From the NCBI GenBank assembly GCA_964641355.1, contig CAZXND010000002.1, forward strand, positions 70,615 to 134,614: 64,000 nucleotides of DNA. Reading direction: 5' to 3'. Source of the stretch: an uncultured Gammaproteobacteria bacterium (GTDB lineage Bacteria; Patescibacteriota; Microgenomatia; Levybacterales; GWA1-39-11). Position numbers and translations under genes: made by a program. The notes below the pieces were generated by a model. The model saw nothing but the letters and a program-made list of their open reading frames with translations. It was not told where the DNA came from and ran no database searches. Of this stretch, positions 387 to 10,399 are shown in pieces (the first letter of the stretch is position 1; every line of letters begins with the position of its first letter).

Positions 387-1850
387 CTAAATGTTATCGG
401 AATTTTTATCTACTACAAGCTTATATGCTAAGGTGTAAATATCGCCTGCACCCATGGTCAAAATGAGGGTATTACTACCTCTAAAATTCTCGATCAAGTA
501 TTCTACCATAAAATCATCATTTTTCGAAAAAGTCACGTCACGACCAAGCTTTCTGAATTCATCCATAAGCTTAGCATAAGAATAATCCTTTACCTCTTCT
601 CTTTGAGTAATATAGACTGGTGCAATTATTGTACTATCCGCCCTTCCAAAAGCTTGGGCAAAATCGCTTAAAAGTGCTTCCGTACGAGAGATACTGTGAG
701 GCTGGAAAATCACAACTATTTTCTTCTCCGGATATGCTCTTTTTACAGCATCGAGTGTAGCCTTAATCTCTTGAGGATGATGCGCATAATCATCAAAAAC
801 AAGGGTGTCGTATTTAGTTTTCCCTATCATTTCAAGCCTTCTTTTTGTACCCGAAAACTTAGACAAAGCAGTCTGAAGTTTGTCTGGATGATAGCCAAGT
901 TCAATTCCGAGAGCAATAATAGAAAGAGCATTTTGCGCATTATGAACCCCAGGAACAGAAAGAGTAAAATCACCGAATTTTATTTCACGACCCTCTACTG
1001 CAAAAAAGGAGTTAAGCCCACTTTCTCTAAAATTGGTGAAGTAATAGTCGTTTGTAGAGCTGGCACCGTATGTTATAACTGTTATATCGCTTCTTACTTT
1101 ATTTCTGAGAGACTGTAACCTTTGATCGTCACCATTAAGAAAAAGCAATCCATTCTCCTTAATTCTTTCCACAAACTTTTCAAAAACTTTTTCAACTTCG
1201 TCAATGCTCCCGTAAAAATCCGGATGGTCAAAGTCTATATTGTTAATTATGACAGCATAAGGTAATAAGTACAGGATTTTTGGAGTTTTGTCATAATTTA
1301 TCTCTGAGACATATTCATCTCCTTCAGCAATGAAGTAATTACCCTTTCCCAAATGTCCTGAAGCTCCCAATGGGAATATCTCTCCACAACCAACACTATA
1401 AGAAGGTTCTGCGCCAAGCTCAGACAAAACAGTTGCAGCCATGGCAGAAATAGTAGTTTTTCCATGAGAGCCAGCAATTGCAATCCCTTTTAAATTCTTC
1501 TTCGACAAAATAGCGCCTTCCATAAATTCTCCCAATGCTTGTCCTTGAGTCAAAACCTTTATTCCAAGATTTCGAGCCGCAATAACTTGAGGATTATCAA
1601 AACCTCTATGGGCACCTGTTGTTATCACAAGACACTTATCGATCGCTTCGCCCCTAAAGAAGTCTTCAATGTTTTTTGCTTCAAATCCTTCATCTATTTT
1701 TATTTTCGCCTCCAAAAGCTCTTTATCTGTTATAAACTTTTCATCTATGTCAGACCCTCTGACTTCCATCTTTGCTTGTGAAGCAATAATTGCCAAAGGC
1801 GCCACTCCAACACCTTTAATCCCTACAAAATAAACTTTTGAGTACATCAT
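387..1850 (-). CDS. murC: UDP-N-acetylmuramate--L-alanine ligase
   Basis: 487 aa. N-terminus VYFVGIKGVGVAPLA matches the MurC P-loop-like start. GSHGKTT Mur-ligase ATP motif. Full three-domain length. Confidence 0.85.
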   Translation of the reverse strand: MMYSKVYFVGIKGVGVAPLAIIASQAKMEVRGSDIDEKFITDKELLEAKIKIDEGFEAKNIEDFFRGEAIDKCLVITTGAHRGFDNPQVIAARNLGIKVLTQGQALGEFMEGAILSKKNLKGIAIAGSHGKTTISAMAATVLSELGAEPSYSVGCGEIFPLGASGHLGKGNYFIAEGDEYVSEINYDKTPKILYLLPYAVIINNIDFDHPDFYGSIDEVEKVFEKFVERIKENGLLFLNGDDQRLQSLRNKVRSDITVITYGASSTNDYYFTNFRESGLNSFFAVEGREIKFGDFTLSVPGVHNAQNALSIIALGIELGYHPDKLQTALSKFSGTKRRLEMIGKTKYDTLVFDDYAHHPQEIKATLDAVKRAYPEKKIVVIFQPHSISRTEALLSDFAQAFGRADSTIIAPVYITQREEVKDYSYAKLMDEFRKLGRDVTFSKNDDFMVEYLIENFRGSNTLILTMGAGDIYTLAYKLVVDKNSDNI

Positions 1851-3049
1851 TTAATTAATCCTCTTTCCTTTAATGCATCATTGATCACTTTAAATTCATC
1901 CCAGGGTTCTTCACCATTTCCTAAATTTATAGATTTTTCATGACTCTTTCCTGTCAGAAGAATAAAATCTCCTCTTTTTGCCATATTTATCGCCTTAAAA
2001 ATAGCTTCTCTCCTATTATTAATTTGCACGAGAGACGAAAAATTACTCGGAATTCCTGATTGAATATCACGATTTATATTTTCAATTTTTTCTTTTCTTG
2101 GATCTTCAGAAGTTAAGATTATTAAATCAGACCATTTACTCGATTCCTCTCCCATCATAGGTCTTTTAGTGGCATCTCGCTCTCCTGCCGAACCAAAAAC
2201 GTGTATGAGTCTGCCTTTTTTTTCTCTTGAAATTTCTGAAAGAAGCTTGGCAAAAGCATTAGGCGTGTGAGCAAAATCGACCATCACGGTAAATTCTTTC
2301 TGATACACAATTTCTTGTCTACCTGAAGGAAGGTCAAAATTTAACACCGCTTCTCTTATCTTCTTACTCTCTACACCCAGCACTTTTGAAGCTGCAACAG
2401 CGGCTAAAATATTATACTTATTAAAATCACCTATTAATTTTGACCTGAACTTAAAATTATCAGGATTAATAGTAGAGTTCTGACCAAAGCCGTAAGTCAT
2501 AAATTTTTTATTTCTGATATTTAGTATTTTATTTTTAAGGTTAATTATTTGCTTATAAGATTTGTCATCTCTATTTAAAATGCAATTCTTTGAATCTTCA
2601 AAAAGCTTCAATTTAGCTCTTAGATACTTATCATATGTTTTATGGTAGTCGAGGTGTTCATGACTAATATTTGTAATTACTCCTACTTCAAAGGAAATTA
2701 AAGCTACTCTATTTTGATCCAAGGCGTGAGAAGTAGTCTCAAGCACAACAAATTCGACCCCACGCGATCTAGCTTCAGAAAGATATCTTTGAATCTGGAT
2801 TGAGCTTGGAGTTGTAACGTGAAAACCAGTATCATATGAAGTGTTATCTATATATGCTCCAACCGTTGAAATTAGAGCTACTTTCTTCCCTGCGTGCTTT
2901 AGTATATGGTAAATAAGGCTTGAAGTTGTAGTTTTTCCATCTGTTCCTGTGACTCCTATTACTTTTAGTCTTGAGGCTGGAAATCCATATATGACTGTAG
3001 CCAGTATCGCTACGAGCAAATGATAGACATTTTTAACTTCCTGATACAT
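1847..3049 (-). CDS. murE: Mur ligase, MurE-like (UDP-MurNAc-tripeptide synthetase), lacking the usual N-terminal domain
   Basis: 400 aa. GVTGTDGKTTT P-loop occurs only about 30 aa from the start. C-terminal TSEDPRKE resembles the MurE DNPR diamino-acid selectivity motif. Sits between ftsI and murC as in dcw clusters. Confidence 0.65.
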   Translation of the reverse strand: MYQEVKNVYHLLVAILATVIYGFPASRLKVIGVTGTDGKTTTSSLIYHILKHAGKKVALISTVGAYIDNTSYDTGFHVTTPSSIQIQRYLSEARSRGVEFVVLETTSHALDQNRVALISFEVGVITNISHEHLDYHKTYDKYLRAKLKLFEDSKNCILNRDDKSYKQIINLKNKILNIRNKKFMTYGFGQNSTINPDNFKFRSKLIGDFNKYNILAAVAASKVLGVESKKIREAVLNFDLPSGRQEIVYQKEFTVMVDFAHTPNAFAKLLSEISREKKGRLIHVFGSAGERDATKRPMMGEESSKWSDLIILTSEDPRKEKIENINRDIQSGIPSNFSSLVQINNRREAIFKAINMAKRGDFILLTGKSHEKSINLGNGEEPWDEFKVINDALKERGLIK

Positions 3050-3141: not shown

Positions 3142-4833
3142 CTAGTATGTCGGTCGGATATTATAATAATTCAAAATTTGTCTTGCGATTGAAAAAAATA
3201 TTGGAGCTGCCGTTTCGGCTCCATAAATTGATTTTTTAGGCCTATCTACAAGAACAAGCATCGATATTTTTGGATCGTTGGCTGGAAAAAAACCGACAAA
3301 TGAGGCTATTGTTTTAGTGGGATCATAATGTCCAGCGACTGGAATTTGAGCCGTTCCTGTTTTTCCGGCGAATTTATAATCAGGTATTTTTGCCCATTTG
3401 GCCTCACCCTTTTCAACAGCATTAACCATAACCCATGTCATCACCTTAGCAGTAGACTCTTTTATTACGCGCCCTTTGGATTCAGGCTTTATTAACACTT
3501 CTTTTCCATCTTCTTTGATTATTTTTGAAACCACATAAGGCTTCATCAAATTGCCCCCATTGGCAATAGTATTCACTGCAACGATTAGCTGCATAGGAGT
3601 AATTGAAATTCCTTGGCCAAAACTCGAAGTAGCAAGATCTATCGGATACCATAAATCTCTATCGCGTATCGATCCACTAATTTCACCCTGAAGGTCAATT
3701 TCTGTATTATCATTTATTCCAAAATCGGTTAAATACTTTATCATCTTGTCAATTCCCAATTTTTTAGCTACAAAGACCATACCTGTATTATCAGAATGTT
3801 GAATTACTTCGGTCATCGTCGTATTTGGATAGTATTTTTCATTCCACGTCTTAATTGAGTATTCACCGATTTTTATGGCAGCAGAGCATATATCACATTT
3901 CGTATCAGGCTTTACCAGATCCAGATCCATTCCAGAAGACATTACGAGGACTTTAAAAGTGGATCCTGGTTCGTAAAGACTTGAAATGGCGGGATTTTTA
4001 TAAGAGGAAGAGTCAAAGTCGTAATAATCTTGCGGATTGAAGTTTGGAAATGAAGCCATGGCCAAAACTTTTCCGCTAGCAGGCTCCATAATAATTACAG
4101 TTCCGCCATCAGCATCATAAGTATTTATTCCGCGAGAAAGCTCTTTCTGTGCATAATACTGTATTGTTCTATCTATATTAAGAACGATATTTCTCCCGTC
4201 TATTTTTGGCAATTGCCTAATATCATTAATTATCGTATTTCCAAGAGCATCTTTTACTACATAAAGCTTCCCATCTCGGCCTTTAAGCTGCTCATTATAA
4301 AATCCCTCAAGACCAAAATATCCCTTGTCCTCTCCGTTCTCATCTTTTCCTACAAAGCCTATTAAGTGCGCAGCCATTGACCCTTCTGGATAATACCTAT
4401 CAGTCTCCTGTTGAAATCCGATTCCTGAAAGTTTTTCATGTTCAATATTTTTCCTTGTAGCATCATCAACCTTTGAAGCAAGTCTTACCCAAAAAAGATT
4501 TTGAGAAAGTTTTGCAGAGATTGAGGACTCGGGGAGAGATAAAAGTTCGGATAGTTTTTTTGCATACTCATCTTTGTTGTTTATTAACTTCGGATTAGCG
4601 TATACTAAATAACTTATCTTATTTGTTGCTAAGGGGAAATTATCGCTTGTTAGAATATCTCCCCTTGAAGATTTTTGGATTAGTGACTCTGTGCTTTGCG
4701 CTTCACCTATCTTTTTAAGATCGGCTCCTCGCAATACCTGCCAATAGAAAAGTTTTAAAAGCACAAAGAGATACAGAAAGAGGAAAAAAACTAAGACTAT
4801 TGTAAACCTGAAATTATCCCACCGGATTGACAT
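3142..4833 (-). CDS. ftsI: Penicillin-binding protein / peptidoglycan D,D-transpeptidase FtsI (class B PBP)
   Basis: 563 aa with an N-terminal TM. STFK (SxxK), HSDN (SxN) and KTGTA (KTG) transpeptidase motifs. Canonical position after ftsL. Confidence 0.85.
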   Translation of the reverse strand: MSIRWDNFRFTIVLVFFLFLYLFVLLKLFYWQVLRGADLKKIGEAQSTESLIQKSSRGDILTSDNFPLATNKISYLVYANPKLINNKDEYAKKLSELLSLPESSISAKLSQNLFWVRLASKVDDATRKNIEHEKLSGIGFQQETDRYYPEGSMAAHLIGFVGKDENGEDKGYFGLEGFYNEQLKGRDGKLYVVKDALGNTIINDIRQLPKIDGRNIVLNIDRTIQYYAQKELSRGINTYDADGGTVIIMEPASGKVLAMASFPNFNPQDYYDFDSSSYKNPAISSLYEPGSTFKVLVMSSGMDLDLVKPDTKCDICSAAIKIGEYSIKTWNEKYYPNTTMTEVIQHSDNTGMVFVAKKLGIDKMIKYLTDFGINDNTEIDLQGEISGSIRDRDLWYPIDLATSSFGQGISITPMQLIVAVNTIANGGNLMKPYVVSKIIKEDGKEVLIKPESKGRVIKESTAKVMTWVMVNAVEKGEAKWAKIPDYKFAGKTGTAQIPVAGHYDPTKTIASFVGFFPANDPKISMLVLVDRPKKSIYGAETAAPIFFSIARQILNYYNIRPTY

Positions 4834-4835
4834 TT

Positions 4836-5159
4836 TTACCTCTGAGCAAAACTCTTGGGACCGGATAAGGAAATTGTATTTTTATTATTTTCTACAAATC
4901 CTATCTCTCCTGCCTTTGAAGCAACATAATCATAGGATGTGTATTTTAACACTTCTGTTTTAAGTAATGTATTTTTTTCAGATAGATCTTCCACTTTTGC
5001 TTTAACATTTGCTGCATAAATACTATTTGTAGATATACTATTTGATAAATGTATATTCACAATTTGAAGAACGGCAAAAAGCACTACTAAAAATGCCAAA
5101 AACAACTTCGCTTTTTTTCCTCCTGGCAATTTATTATTAGACATCTTATAAATTTTCAT
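4836..5159 (-). CDS. ftsL: Cell division protein FtsL-like (small bitopic membrane protein)
   Basis: 107 aa with a single TM followed by a coiled-coil-like segment. Located between rsmH and ftsI, the conserved FtsL position. Confidence 0.55.
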   Translation of the reverse strand: MKIYKMSNNKLPGGKKAKLFLAFLVVLFAVLQIVNIHLSNSISTNSIYAANVKAKVEDLSEKNTLLKTEVLKYTSYDYVASKAGEIGFVENNKNTISLSGPKSFAQR

Positions 5160-5162
5160 AAA

Positions 5163-6068
5163 CTACGCCTTAATCTTTTCTAAAATCCTCATTTTTGCAC
5201 TTCTTGATCTTGGGTTTTCGTAAATTTCACTATCACTTGCTACAACTGGCTTTTTTAAAAACACATATCCAGACTCTCTCATGGTGTTTTTAACAATACG
5301 ATCCTCAAGAGAATGGAATGATATAACGCACAAGATTCCTTTCTCAGAAAGCAAAGACACTGAATCTGTTAATGCTTCTTTCAGATTAGACAATTCATTA
5401 TTTACTGCAATTCTTAATGCCATAAATACTTTTGTCGCCGGATGTATCTTACCCTCACGTCTCACATTTTCCTCTATTAACGATGCGAGCTCAGTTGTCC
5501 TCTCTATTGGCTTTATTTTTCTTGCAGCATCAATTACTTCTGCGATTTTAACTGCATTTCTATCTTCCCCATATTTAGCGAAGAGAATCGAAAGCTCGTC
5601 TTTTGTCCAATTATTCACAATTGATAATGCTGAAAGGTCTGATTTTTTATTCATTCTCATATCAAGAATCTCGTCCTTTTTAAAACTGAATCCACGTCCC
5701 GATTGGTCAATTTGATAAGAAGAAAGTCCAAGATCAAATAAAATCCCGTCTACTTTCTCAAATCCAAATCTTGCCGCAAGCCCTTTTATGTCCGAGAAGT
5801 TTCCAAGAGCCAAAGTTAAATTCTTTTCCCCGAAAAACTTTTTCTGTACAAAACTTATCGCGTCTTCATCTTGATCAATACCAAGCACTATTCCACCCCG
5901 CTCAATTATTTCCTTTGTATGACCTCCTCCTCCGATGGTTGCATCTATGTATTTTCCCCCAGGCTTTATTTTGAGTGCTTCTATTGCCTCATTTTTAAGA
6001 ACACTTATGTGAGAAAAGTCATTTTGATTCATTTGAGAGAGATTACTTTGAGTCATCGAGCTTTTCAA
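5163..6068 (-). CDS. rsmH: 16S rRNA (cytosine1402-N4)-methyltransferase RsmH (MraW)
   Basis: 301 aa. HISVLKNEAI...YIDATIGGGGHT is the RsmH SAM-binding N-terminus. Follows mraZ. Confidence 0.9.
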   Translation of the reverse strand: MKSSMTQSNLSQMNQNDFSHISVLKNEAIEALKIKPGGKYIDATIGGGGHTKEIIERGGIVLGIDQDEDAISFVQKKFFGEKNLTLALGNFSDIKGLAARFGFEKVDGILFDLGLSSYQIDQSGRGFSFKKDEILDMRMNKKSDLSALSIVNNWTKDELSILFAKYGEDRNAVKIAEVIDAARKIKPIERTTELASLIEENVRREGKIHPATKVFMALRIAVNNELSNLKEALTDSVSLLSEKGILCVISFHSLEDRIVKNTMRESGYVFLKKPVVASDSEIYENPRSRSAKMRILEKIKA

Positions 6069-6483
6069 TCAATTTTTCTGCAACTTCTGCGATGTTTTTT
6101 CTATTTTCTTCTTCATACTTCCTCCACGCTTCTAAATTCCAAACTTCAACATAAGTTTCTTGACCTACAAATACAACCTCTTCTCCCACGCGTGAATAGT
6201 CTCTTAGATACTCAGGTAATACAAATCTTCCCTGTCTATCAAGCTCGGCAAGCGTCGCTCCTCCAAGTAAAAATCGTCTGATATCTCGTGTTTCACTTAA
6301 TAAAAATGGTTTACCCTCAGTCCCTGTGAGTAGCGACCTCCAATTTTTCTCGGACACAACTATCAAAGAGCCTTCGAATCCGTAAGTTACGACGAGTTTA
6401 TCGCCTAATTCCTCACGAAATCTTTTCGGAAATGCAATTCGTGCTTTTTCTCCAACTTTTACTTTGAATTGACCAATTAACAT
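6043..6483 (-). CDS. mraZ: Transcriptional regulator MraZ
   Basis: 146 aa, two-repeat MraZ fold. N-terminus MLIGQFKVKVGEKARIAFPKRFRE resembles the MraZ DXXXR-containing start. First gene of the dcw cluster. Confidence 0.85.
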   Translation of the reverse strand: MLIGQFKVKVGEKARIAFPKRFREELGDKLVVTYGFEGSLIVVSEKNWRSLLTGTEGKPFLLSETRDIRRFLLGGATLAELDRQGRFVLPEYLRDYSRVGEEVVFVGQETYVEVWNLEAWRKYEEENRKNIAEVAEKLIEKLDDSK

Positions 6484-6530
6484 AAGAAGTATTTCTACAA
6501 ACTAACAAGTGAACATTTCTATTTAAATAA

Positions 6531-6569
6531 TTATAAACCATATTCACCATAATTCACCACTTTTCACCA
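6531..6569 (-). promoter_or_regulatory. Predicted mraZ promoter -10 (TATAAT on minus strand at 6536..6531) with three 10-bp-spaced direct repeats TGGTGAA (minus strand; TTCACCA on plus at 6543-6549, 6553-6559, 6563-6569). Candidate MraZ operator.
   Basis: Exact heptamer repeated 3 times with 10-bp periodicity, 60-85 bp upstream of the mraZ ATG and adjacent to a perfect TATAAT. MraZ operators in other bacteria are series of short direct repeats at about 10-bp spacing overlapping Pmra. Confidence 0.45.
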
Positions 6570-6713
6570 ATATTTAATTATTTTGATTCATTTTGAATCT
6601 GTTGTCAAGGGGTAAGATGCAGAAAAAACCAAGCATTTAACAACTTTATGGATTGAGATTTTACAATACACTAAATGTAGTAAAAATGATTAGAAAAAAA
6701 GAATCAGAGGAAA

Positions 6714-7208
6714 TTATTCAAGAGAGATTTTTTCAGTTACGGTTCCGATTTCTCCATTTGTATAGGTGACCTTAAGAACAACAGTTATATCTGAAGTAAC
6801 TTTGTCGTACTTACAAACATTTGCACTACATGTTCCAAGTAGGATTTCTCGAGTCACGCTTGACTCACCTGACTTTACTTGAATTGGACTTGCAACAACT
6901 CCGCGAGGAACATCACCTTCACCGCCAGCTTCCGGATCGGTATTTTCTGCATTGTAATTAACTTCGTACTCAATCGTAGAAATACCTGAAAGCTTGTTGA
7001 TTGTCATAATAACCGCTCTATTATCCGCGCGAGGCTTGAGTGATAATCCTATGTCGCTTGCTGAAATCTCCTTTACCTGTTGTTCTTCTTCTTGAGTTGG
7101 TTGCTCAGTGCCAGAGTTTCTTCCAAGAATAAAATATGCTCCACCACCAACTATAAGAATTAAAACTACTACTAGAATGAGGACTGTCTTATTTTTAAAG
7201 AAATTCAT
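6714..7208 (-). CDS. Hypothetical membrane-anchored/secreted protein
   Basis: 164 aa. N-terminal TM (VLILVVVLILIVGGGAYFIL), then an acidic linker and a beta-rich C-terminal domain. No recognisable family. Confidence 0.4.
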   Translation of the reverse strand: MNFFKNKTVLILVVVLILIVGGGAYFILGRNSGTEQPTQEEEQQVKEISASDIGLSLKPRADNRAVIMTINKLSGISTIEYEVNYNAENTDPEAGGEGDVPRGVVASPIQVKSGESSVTREILLGTCSANVCKYDKVTSDITVVLKVTYTNGEIGTVTEKISLE

Positions 7209-8719: not shown

Positions 8720-10399
8720 ATGATTAATAAAGTATCAATTGAAAATTTTCGTTCATTAAAGAAGGTCGAGATAGACTTAATCTTACTTCATGCGATTGTT
8801 GGAGAAAATGGCACAGGAAAAACATCTATTCTTGAGGCTATTAACTACGTCACCTCTAGAGAGTATGCATCAAGAAAAATTGACGAACAAGATTTCCACT
8901 CCGATGAGCCAATTCAAATTAAAGTTTATTTTGATAAATATTTTTCCCTTCAAACAAAGGACGGTTATGCTACAAAGAATATTCTCTGTAATGGTGTATT
9001 CCTGAGGGTTAAACGAAGAGAAAAGGCATCACCAGGAAGAGCACTCTCTGATGGCGTTACCATTGAACATTTAGTTATTCCCGTCACATACTCTAATCAA
9101 TCTGAGATTAAAGAAGAATTATTGCCTGAAGGAGTTACGAGAGATTCATTGCCCACCAAACTAGAACGAACAGAACAGGGATTTGAAGCTCCAAGAGCGT
9201 CCAGCAGTAATCCATGGCAAATATCCGCACAGACACTATCATTTAATGGTGGCGACCTTGTTGGGTTTCCTTCAATTTTTTACTTCGACAGATACAGAGA
9301 GTCTGAAGCTAAGATGGGATACAATTCTTTGTTCCAAAAAATATCTAAAGAACTCGATTGGAGATATTTAAAATCGGTCAACTCAACGCAAACTTCCACA
9401 GATTGGGAAACCTACTACAATCCTGTTGTTGAGTCTGTTAAAAGCGAAAAACGAAGCAACATTCTTGACCCAATAAGAAATGATGCGCAACGCATTCTAG
9501 GTAAGGATTTTTCGAATTTTGAAATTGGTCTACATCATCTCAAGCAACCATTTAAACAGTCTTTCTTTTCACTTAGAAATCCAGGCGAGATAACACAAAT
9601 AGAATTTTCAAAAATGGGCTCAGGAGTGTGTACGCTCATTGCATATCTTCTCCTAAAAACAATAAGTAATTTATCAAAACAGGAAGTAGTATTTTTGATT
9701 GACGAGCCAGAAATGCATCTTCACTCTCAGGCAAGAACTGCACTTTTTGAAGAGTTCTTGAACTCAAGTAATCAAATTGTTTATACAACACATTCTGAAT
9801 TTTTTGTTGATTTAACAAATTGGAAAGGCGTATTAAGAATTGACGAAAAAAATAACACATTTCCACTGCCTGAAACTCTAGAAGAAACAATTAATGGTCA
9901 GACTATGCAAGACCATCTTGATGAAATAAAAACCTGGCATCAAGATAAAACAATTTATAATAAAGAAAACAATGAAATATTTTTTGCAAGAAAGGTTATC
10001 TTAACTGAGGGACCAATCGATAAATTTGGCATACGCAGATTTGAAGGTTTAATGGGTATACGGATTACTGACTCAACAATCATAAGCTGCAACGGTAAAA
10101 GTAAAATTCCCTATTACCAACTACTTTGCAAAGCGTTTGGAATTCCCTACTTCACCCTTATAGACTTAGACACTAAAGCTGAAACGGATACTGAAAATAA
10201 ATCGTTAATTGACTGGGTGGAAAACGATGCTTCTGCAAAATTTGAAAATTCTTTCGAAAACTCGCTTGGTATAAATCCAGACACTCATAAAGGGTCAGAA
10301 GTATTGAAGCATATAGAAAGTATTACTTCTAAAGAGACAATTCCGCAGGACATTCGTGAAGCTATTGAGAAGATTCAGTCATGGTCAACCAGCGATTAA
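8720..10399 (+). CDS. OLD-family (overcoming lysogenization defect) ATP-dependent nuclease, class 1: N-terminal ABC-like ATPase plus C-terminal Toprim
   Basis: 559 aa. Walker A GENGTGKTS near the N-terminus. Walker B/H-loop FLIDEPEMHLHSQ. C-terminal Toprim with catalytic Glu (ILTEGPIDKFGI), CNGKS glycine turn and DxD (TLIDLDTK). No adjacent helicase partner, so single-gene class 1 arrangement. Confidence 0.75.
   Translation: MINKVSIENFRSLKKVEIDLILLHAIVGENGTGKTSILEAINYVTSREYASRKIDEQDFHSDEPIQIKVYFDKYFSLQTKDGYATKNILCNGVFLRVKRREKASPGRALSDGVTIEHLVIPVTYSNQSEIKEELLPEGVTRDSLPTKLERTEQGFEAPRASSSNPWQISAQTLSFNGGDLVGFPSIFYFDRYRESEAKMGYNSLFQKISKELDWRYLKSVNSTQTSTDWETYYNPVVESVKSEKRSNILDPIRNDAQRILGKDFSNFEIGLHHLKQPFKQSFFSLRNPGEITQIEFSKMGSGVCTLIAYLLLKTISNLSKQEVVFLIDEPEMHLHSQARTALFEEFLNSSNQIVYTTHSEFFVDLTNWKGVLRIDEKNNTFPLPETLEETINGQTMQDHLDEIKTWHQDKTIYNKENNEIFFARKVILTEGPIDKFGIRRFEGLMGIRITDSTIISCNGKSKIPYYQLLCKAFGIPYFTLIDLDTKAETDTENKSLIDWVENDASAKFENSFENSLGINPDTHKGSEVLKHIESITSKETIPQDIREAIEKIQSWSTSD

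Follow-up and report, generated by a model that had tools for sequence, protein, structure and literature searches.

The mraZ locus

The window, that is the whole stretch of 64,000 nucleotides that was analysed, carries on its minus strand a mraZ gene which heads a dcw cluster in the order mraZ-rsmH-ftsL-ftsI-murE. Directly upstream of this cluster lies a short array of direct repeats. The genes of the cluster are listed below.

6043..6483, minus strand: mraZ, 146 amino acids with K13, R15, D82, Q84 and R86; Pfam PF02381; ATG at 6483-6481
5163-6068, minus strand: rsmH; PF01795, 1.4e-92
4836-5159, minus strand: ftsL/DivIC-like open reading frame (ORF), weak match
3142-4833, minus strand: ftsI/PBP, a class B PBP
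1847-3049, minus strand: Mur ligase, the murE of the cluster

In an earlier note on this DNA, the gene downstream of the repeats had been called mraZ. For the ORF at 6483..6043 (minus strand), this assignment was borne out by the match to PF02381 (E=3.4e-25), in which two MraZ/SpoVT-AbrB-like repeats were matched in one chain. Furthermore, residues 1-138 of the protein align with the structures of the MraZ proteins of M. genitalium and M. pneumoniae, with E values of about 1e-15. The DNA-contact residues Lys13, Arg15 and Arg86 are kept, together with Asp82, as judged from this alignment and from invariant columns. The Asp11 of the first DXXXR motif is absent from the MraZ of the window, which reads G11-E12-K13-A14-R15 (codon 11 at 6451-6453). 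Among the relatives described below, Gly11 is the residue most often seen here, and more than half of them lack the Asp. Judging from the sequence, Glu12 may substitute for the absent Asp11, a residue that is said to position Arg15.

The dcw genes between 1847 and 6068 are presumably co-transcribed with mraZ, as they are closely packed on the same strand with gaps of at most 92 nt.

Two other ORFs were observed in the surroundings. Between glyS and mraZ, positions 6714-7208 of the minus strand encode a protein of 164 amino acids with an N-terminal hydrophobic segment, which matches no Pfam family. In three relatives (L088, L090 and L091), ORFs of 156-163 amino acids, likewise without a Pfam match, take its place upstream of mraZ, and in view of this equal position the 164-aa ORF appears to be a conserved lineage-specific neighbour. 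Further away, an ORF of 559 amino acids on the plus strand (8720-10399) carries the N-terminal P-loop GENGTGKTS and was assigned by eye from its sequence as a putative OLD/AAA_15-type ATPase. ATPases of this type are of a kind found in defence systems.

Promoter and repeat array upstream of mraZ

[quoted passage not shown] P1 denotes the promoter TTGACA-17-CAAAAT.

6603..6608, minus strand: -35 hexamer of P1, TTGACA; with its -10 it gives 10/12 matches in a consensus scan
6580..6585, minus strand: -10 hexamer of P1, CAAAAT, separated from TTGACA by a 17-nt spacer
6572..6574, minus strand: predicted transcription start, placed about 7 nt past the -10 by standard sigma-70 geometry
6563..6569, minus strand: putative MraZ box 1 at about +5 to +11; TGGTGAA, with a T before it; aligns in register with the first box of the relatives
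6553..6559, minus strand: putative MraZ box 2, TGGTGAA, preceded by G, which gives GTGGTGAA, the consensus of the Gln84 subclade (see below); it matches the B. subtilis GTGGTG
6543..6549, minus strand: putative MraZ box 3 at about +25 to +31; TGGTGAA, with an A before it
6534..6540, minus strand: degenerate fourth unit, TGGTTTA, 9 bp after box 3 and out of phase
6530..6535, minus strand: TATAAT hexamer, downstream of the boxes, its last base 46 nt before the ATG

A pattern search located the heptamer TGGTGAA at 6569-6563, 6559-6553 and 6549-6543 of the minus strand, with an exact period of 10 bp; the three copies at this spacing, as claimed in the earlier note, were thus recovered at these coordinates. 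Read along the minus strand, the promoter and the array have the order TTGACAACAGATTCAAAATGAATCAAAAT-AATTAAATAT-TGGTGAAAAG-TGGTGAATTA-TGGTGAATA-TGGTTTATAAT, with AAATAT directly 5' of TGGTGAAAAG. The boxes begin 10 nt past the CAAAAT of P1 and cover about +5 to +31 relative to the predicted start near 6573. From the end of the array to the ATG of mraZ the distance is 59 nt. The canonical G before TGG is found in box 2 only, box 1 having a T and box 3 an A at this position.

MraZ operators have been defined as direct repeats with a GTG(G/T)/TGG core, a 10-bp period and spacers of about 6 nt (PMC12957436). What characterizes MraZ-binding repeats was found in the array of the window: at least three direct repeats, a 10-bp period and TGG in all three boxes. 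The spacers between the TGGTGAA boxes are AAG and TTA. As these differ at all three positions, the array is not a simple tandem duplication. The TGGTTTA unit (6540-6534) is probably not a functional box, and no counterpart was found among the relatives, in which the extra box is situated on the upstream side, over the -10.

Both the promoter and the phased array are singular in the window. The pattern TTGACA-N16-18-[CT]A[AT]AAT has one instance in the whole window, which is P1. The heptamer TGGTGAA itself was counted 15 times in the 64 kb (7.6 expected), and the phased triple remains unique there at up to 3 mismatches (0.01 expected from shuffled sequences). No further copy of the operator was found in the 64-kb window; the sole two-box match, with 2 mismatches, lies at 3412-3428 inside ftsI and is at chance level.

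Conservation of the promoter and the array in Levybacteria

For comparison, 80 loci of GTDB Levybacteria-like genomes were retrieved by means of a MraZ alignment. Like the nearest MraZ homologues, they are named Candidatus Levybacteria/Levyibacteriota, Microgenomates or Patescibacteria. With the window, which is assigned to an uncultured Candidatus Levybacteria genome, this makes 81 loci. In all 81, mraZ is preceded by a promoter of the form TTGACA-17/18-(C)AAAAT, and T(G/A)G cores phased at 10 bp start right behind it. The -35 is exactly TTGACA in 77/81 loci, the spacer is 17 nt long in 76/81 and the -10 is CAAAAT in 62/81. The earlier note had proposed a search for the array upstream of mraZ in related genomes as a check, and the outcome was positive, the phased boxes being in place in 81/81 loci. 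Of a set of 89 loci, 81 showed three or more T(G/A)G cores phased at 10 bp; most of the 8 exceptions have a GGG middle box that was missed by the regular expression.

Past the -10, the relatives read CAAAAT-GGAATAAAG-TGGGAAAAAG-TGGGACAAAG-TGGGA or close variants of it, and the TGGTGAAAAG of the window stands in register with their TGGGAAAAAG. The in-register box is nTGG-TGAA in the window versus AAAG-TGG-GAA in the relatives. In the majority operator of the Levybacteria (65 loci), CAAAAT-GG-AATAAAG-TGGGAAAAAG-TGGGACAAAG-TGGGA, the promoter, the phase and the position are shared with the window and the arrays align box for box. The majority, however, has GTGG(G/T)(A/C) boxes and a MraZ with Lys84, whereas the window, as part of a Gln84 subclade, has GTGGTGAA boxes. 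Its array begins 10 nt past the -10, which is 1 nt further downstream than the 9 nt seen in most relatives. The majority often includes a fourth box as well, which reaches over the end of the -10 (CAAAATGG); such a box was observed in 57/89 loci and is absent from the window. On the 3' side of the boxes, the length of the leader ranges from 29 to 152 nt, and its sequence cannot be aligned among the relatives. With such a variable leader beyond them, the boxes form a conserved island.

Relatives whose MraZ is 64-70% identical to that of the window have AAGTGGTGAA boxes likewise (L083-L091 and L213-L215). For the closest available relative (L081/L082, MraZ 78% identical), the 760-nt contig offers 144 nt upstream of mraZ, and no array is present in them. 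The leader of L081 shares with the window the segment TTCACT..GTAGTTTGTAG and has about 60 extra nt. Since the shared segment and the extra nucleotides suggest a longer leader, the operator of L081 may lie beyond the end of the contig.

Many metagenome-assembled records titled 'uncultured Gammaproteobacteria bacterium' (L002, L003, L005, L009 and others) carry mraZ loci of the Levybacteria type, with MraZ proteins 52-62% identical and the same promoter and operator. These titles are apparently a labelling error.

Co-variation between the boxes and MraZ

MraZ sequences were translated from 89 loci and grouped by box type, and residues 15 and 84 of the DNA-binding loops were found to separate the groups. 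All 22 loci with TGGTGA boxes encode Gln84 in the context D-x-Q-G-R (L001, L002, L005, L033, L053, L074, L083-L091, L098, L123, L206, L208 and L213-L215); in the window, the Gln84 codon is at 6232-6234. Lys84 is encoded in 74 loci with GTGGG or GTAGG boxes. Locus L002, which was first binned with the others, has Gln84 and the boxes GTGGTAA, GTGGAAT and GTGGTGA. The relation was also observed from both directions: four mraZ genes found by the DNA pattern alone all encode Gln84 (4/4), and three Gln84 proteins picked before their DNA was viewed all have GTGGTGA boxes (3/3) and no GTGGG box. Over the 22 Gln84 loci, which contribute 60 boxes, the consensus is AAA-(G/A)TGG-T-G-A-A; TGGTGA occurs in 40 of these boxes and TGGG in one. 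Outside this set, an exact look-up gave Gln84 for the MraZ of B. subtilis; those of E. coli and M. genitalium have Ala84.

At the other position, Gln15 (GEKHQ) was found in all ten loci with GTAGG boxes and Arg15 in all of the 79 others of the 89-locus alignment. The Gln15 loci, with GTAGG/GTAGT boxes about 40-70 nt upstream of mraZ, are L032, L046, L047, L049, L052, L054, L060, L062, L064 and L069. A change from Arg to Gln paired with a change from G to A is the classical direction, and on sequence grounds R15Q together with the GTAGG boxes looks like a natural coupled specificity switch. Arg15 has been reported to be essential, and it contacts the third core base in the cryo-EM structure of a MraZ-DNA complex (PMC12957436). 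If the switch is real, the natural R15Q variants would demonstrate that Arg15, held to be essential, is replaceable when its base changes with it.

These counts are not independent events. In a neighbour-joining tree of the Levybacteria set, a single clade holds the Gln84/TGGTGA loci, and the GTAGG/Gln15 loci make up a near-clade interrupted by two intruders, so that part of the co-variation reflects shared ancestry. The independent cases of Gln84 are the metagenome lineages and B. subtilis.

As an independent test that starts from the DNA, the pattern TGGTGA-N4-TGGTGA-N4-TGGTGA was scanned over metagenome contigs, which yielded at least 120 stretches and constitutes a sample rather than a census. 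Among the matches listed, 96 of 120 are simple 10-bp satellites with identical or near-identical spacers. Also among the matches listed, 4 stretches sit between a sigma-70 promoter and mraZ, the encoded MraZ being 34-59% identical to that of the window; three of them belong to the 24 stretches with differing spacers and one to the 96 with near-identical spacers. Since the target amounts to a few tens of bases per genome, these 4 stretches linked to mraZ represent a very large enrichment. At the level of sequence, the scan shows that boxes of the TGGTGA type are also present in distant lineages. Among the matches L093-L212, perfect 10-bp satellites such as (TGGTGATTAA)n were abundant, especially on the contigs Ga0126342_* of one metagenome series. 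They are unrelated to mraZ and call for caution in searches for MraZ operators that use a pattern only.

The co-variation between the boxes and these residues is the strongest indirect evidence suggesting that MraZ reads the boxes. No description of a co-variation of the boxes with residue 84 or 15 was found in the literature searched. A tentative recognition code, for which we see slightly less than an even chance, would have residue 84 set the bases 3' of the GTGG core (Gln84 for (T/A)GA, as in B. subtilis, Lys84 for G(A)) and residue 15 the third core base (Arg for G, Gln for A, as in the Levybacteria with GTAGG boxes). The TGGTGAA box of the window would be one state of this code. Within the second DXXXR loop, residue 84 takes the place that is pseudo-symmetric to that of Lys13. 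If this code is true, MraZ operators would become predictable from the protein sequence across bacteria. The Gln84/TGGTGA and Gln15/GTAGG pairs also offer cheap, testable specificity swaps for the recently solved MraZ-DNA structure.

Comparison with known MraZ operators

The closest described counterpart of the array is found in B. subtilis, where Pmra contains three GTGG[A/T]G motifs with 4-nt spacers; they occur nowhere else in the genome, and repression by MraZ requires them (bioRxiv 10.1101/2022.02.09.479790). Both systems have three direct repeats with a 10-bp period at the mra promoter, and in both the triple is unique to the mraZ promoter (for the window, within its 64 kb). The GTGGTG of box 2 is an exact match of the B. 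subtilis type, and both MraZ proteins carry D-x-Q-G-R (Gln84) in the second DNA-binding loop. The window differs from B. subtilis in that the first position of boxes 1 and 3 is T and A, not G, in that the identical stretch TGGTGAA is carried by each of the three boxes, and in that the host belongs to the Candidate Phyla Radiation (CPR).

In E. coli, Pmra as read from NC_000913.3 is TTGACA-18-TAAACT-7 nt-GTGGGAAATT-GTGGGGCAAA-GTGGG before mraZ. The order of a consensus TTGACA, a 17/18-nt spacer, a -10 and three 10-bp-phased boxes, starting 7-10 nt past the -10 and ending shortly before mraZ, is therefore common to E. coli and the window. In contrast to the window, the E. coli boxes are GTGGG (TGGGN) and not nTGGTGA, its MraZ has Ala84, and its 5'UTR after the boxes is much shorter.

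The operator of M. genitalium consists of four AAAGTGT-N3 boxes with the transcription start inside box 1 (PMC12957436). Its cryo-EM complexes (PDB 9qlr, 9qlg and 9sx6) show Lys13, Arg15 and Arg86 in contact with the core T, G and T/G, and mutations of the boxes relieve repression stepwise (PMC12957436). The window resembles this system by its A-rich 5' flank (AAAG in box 2), by the 10-bp phase, by K13/R15/R86 and by a start at or inside box 1, which in the window is a predicted one. However, M. genitalium has four boxes ending in GTGT and Ala84, whereas the window has three TGG boxes with a conserved TGAA extension.

The earlier note had regarded the motif as different from the known boxes and possibly lineage-specific, a view that does not fit with these comparisons, as the box holds the universal GTG(G/T)/TGG core and is of the B. 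subtilis GTGG[A/T]G type. By its sequence, the TGGTGAA box is a subclade variant of the universal core and not a new motif.

Proposed regulation and alternative explanations

It is very likely that the three TGGTGAA repeats are the operator of the mraZ/dcw promoter TTGACA-17-CAAAAT, through which MraZ would negatively autoregulate mraZ and the division genes. The core of this reading, i.e. that the array is the MraZ operator of this promoter, is strongly supported by the sequence comparisons. The claim of the earlier note that the repeats are an MraZ operator is upheld by the occurrence of the boxes in 81/81 loci, by the GTGGTGAA boxes of the closest relatives and by the co-variation with DNA-contacting positions of MraZ. 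On this reading, the array is an ordinary instance of a well-known class of operators, which thereby reaches into the CPR, and represents no new type. The sequence anatomy, the identity of MraZ, the conservation of promoter and array and the co-variation are direct observations, whereas we infer the binding of MraZ, the transcription start and the sign of regulation by analogy with E. coli, B. subtilis and M. genitalium.

According to the proposed mechanism, mraZ-rsmH-ftsL-ftsI-murE would be transcribed from TTGACA(6608-6603)-17-CAAAAT(6585-6580). As the boxes are exactly one helical turn apart, they would present the same face of the DNA, and adjacent subunits of a MraZ oligomer could insert their beta-sheet 'cradle' (K13, R15, R86 and probably Q84) into successive major grooves. 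In this way, the oligomer would bind the three boxes cooperatively. With the start site and the initially transcribed region occupied, RNA polymerase would be blocked, excluded or stalled, and the outcome would be negative autoregulation of mraZ and of the downstream division genes.

The promoter under control could, in principle, be another one. In the earlier note, the TATAAT hexamer had been taken as the promoter, with the array immediately upstream of it. In that case the boxes would lie upstream of and over the -35/spacer region of a functional TATAAT promoter, and MraZ would bind the same boxes. A perfect TATAAT is indeed present at 6535-6530, its last base 46 nt before the ATG, close to the 48 nt given in the earlier note, and the unusually long distance of 96 nt from the -10 of P1 to the ATG leaves space for a second promoter. 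Nevertheless, its -35 candidates match at 3/6 positions, a TG extension is missing, it was not among the calls of the promoter scan, and the hexamer is common by composition, with 112 occurrences in a window of 32% GC. Moreover, no relative has a -10 downstream of the boxes and many have a distance of 29-60 nt between the -10 of P1 and the ATG, whereas P1 is conserved in 81/81 loci. TATAAT was therefore rejected as the main promoter, an assignment that we consider unlikely, and the boxes stand downstream of the -10 of the conserved P1 instead of upstream of the promoter. P1 lies within the segment 6531-6609 which the earlier note had described with no mention of P1 or of the TGGTTTA unit. At most, TATAAT would be a secondary promoter, P2, with its -35 region within boxes 2 and 3. 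This geometry concerns only which promoter is controlled, and the two promoters could coexist. A further alternative keeps the boxes as MraZ sites but makes MraZ an activator of the promoter. MraZ of M. gallisepticum has been reported to activate on overexpression, as far as the citation of that work in PMC12957436 goes. Activation is, however, very improbable for the window, where the boxes lie downstream of the -10 and across the predicted start, a position typical of repression, as in E. coli, and where a promoter with a consensus -35 and an optimal 17-nt spacing should need no activator. Repression through such boxes has been shown in B. subtilis (bioRxiv 10.1101/2022.02.09.479790) and in M. 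genitalium (PMC12957436).

If the repeats were a 10-bp tandem duplication or microsatellite with no function, located upstream of mraZ by chance, they would resemble the simple satellites that make up 96 of the 120 TGGTGA triples among the metagenome matches listed. Against this stand the AAG and TTA spacers, which have no position in common, the presence of phased boxes at the same position in 81/81 loci with diverged flanks, and the co-variation of the box sequence with MraZ residues; a functionless satellite is effectively refuted by conservation, and its residual probability is close to nil. It is also conceivable that the repeats act as RNA in the 5'UTR, where they might offer GGUGA standby sites that resemble a Shine-Dalgarno sequence, or form a structured leader. 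The boxes would be transcribed from P1, GGTGA is complementary to the standard 3' end of 16S rRNA, and in L001, L005, L091 and L215 the last GTGGTGAA box is 3-5 nt before the ATG, in the place of a Shine-Dalgarno sequence. In the window, however, 59 nt separate the last box from the ATG, the leader folds no better than shuffled sequences (z = -0.86) and has no Rfam match, and the relatives with GTGGG/GTAGG boxes retain the phase but not GGTGA. We hold a role at the RNA level to be extremely unlikely.

The operator reading extends the autoregulatory circuit of MraZ to the CPR, with a promoter-operator layout as in E. coli, Firmicutes and Mollicutes. To our knowledge, almost no transcriptional regulation has been described in the CPR, and nothing on MraZ in the CPR was found in the literature searched. 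The shared layout supports the view that the MraZ circuit dates back to the ancestor of Bacteria. In practical terms, the gain is modest and consists of a defined operator and promoter for the annotation of Levybacteria dcw clusters.

Other elements in the mraZ upstream regions

Neither a recognisable Shine-Dalgarno sequence nor the AAAGGCAGG(A) element described here was found before mraZ in the window, which reads GTAGAAATACTTCTTATG. In 47/80 relatives, this element occurs 6-14 nt upstream of the mraZ ATG, in the position of a Shine-Dalgarno sequence but with C for the central A. It is sometimes located about 30 nt upstream of the ATG, and is then followed by a GC hairpin.

Upstream of the -35, an inverted repeat TTTAGTGTTT-N-ACACTATTTT was observed in 33/76 relatives versus 0/386 control windows. 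In 25 of these 33 loci it ends exactly 18 nt before TTGACA. The window has the left half only (ACATTTAGTGT, at about 6660-6674). Judging by its sequence, the inverted repeat is a candidate binding site through which a second regulator, a dimeric one, might act on the dcw promoter.
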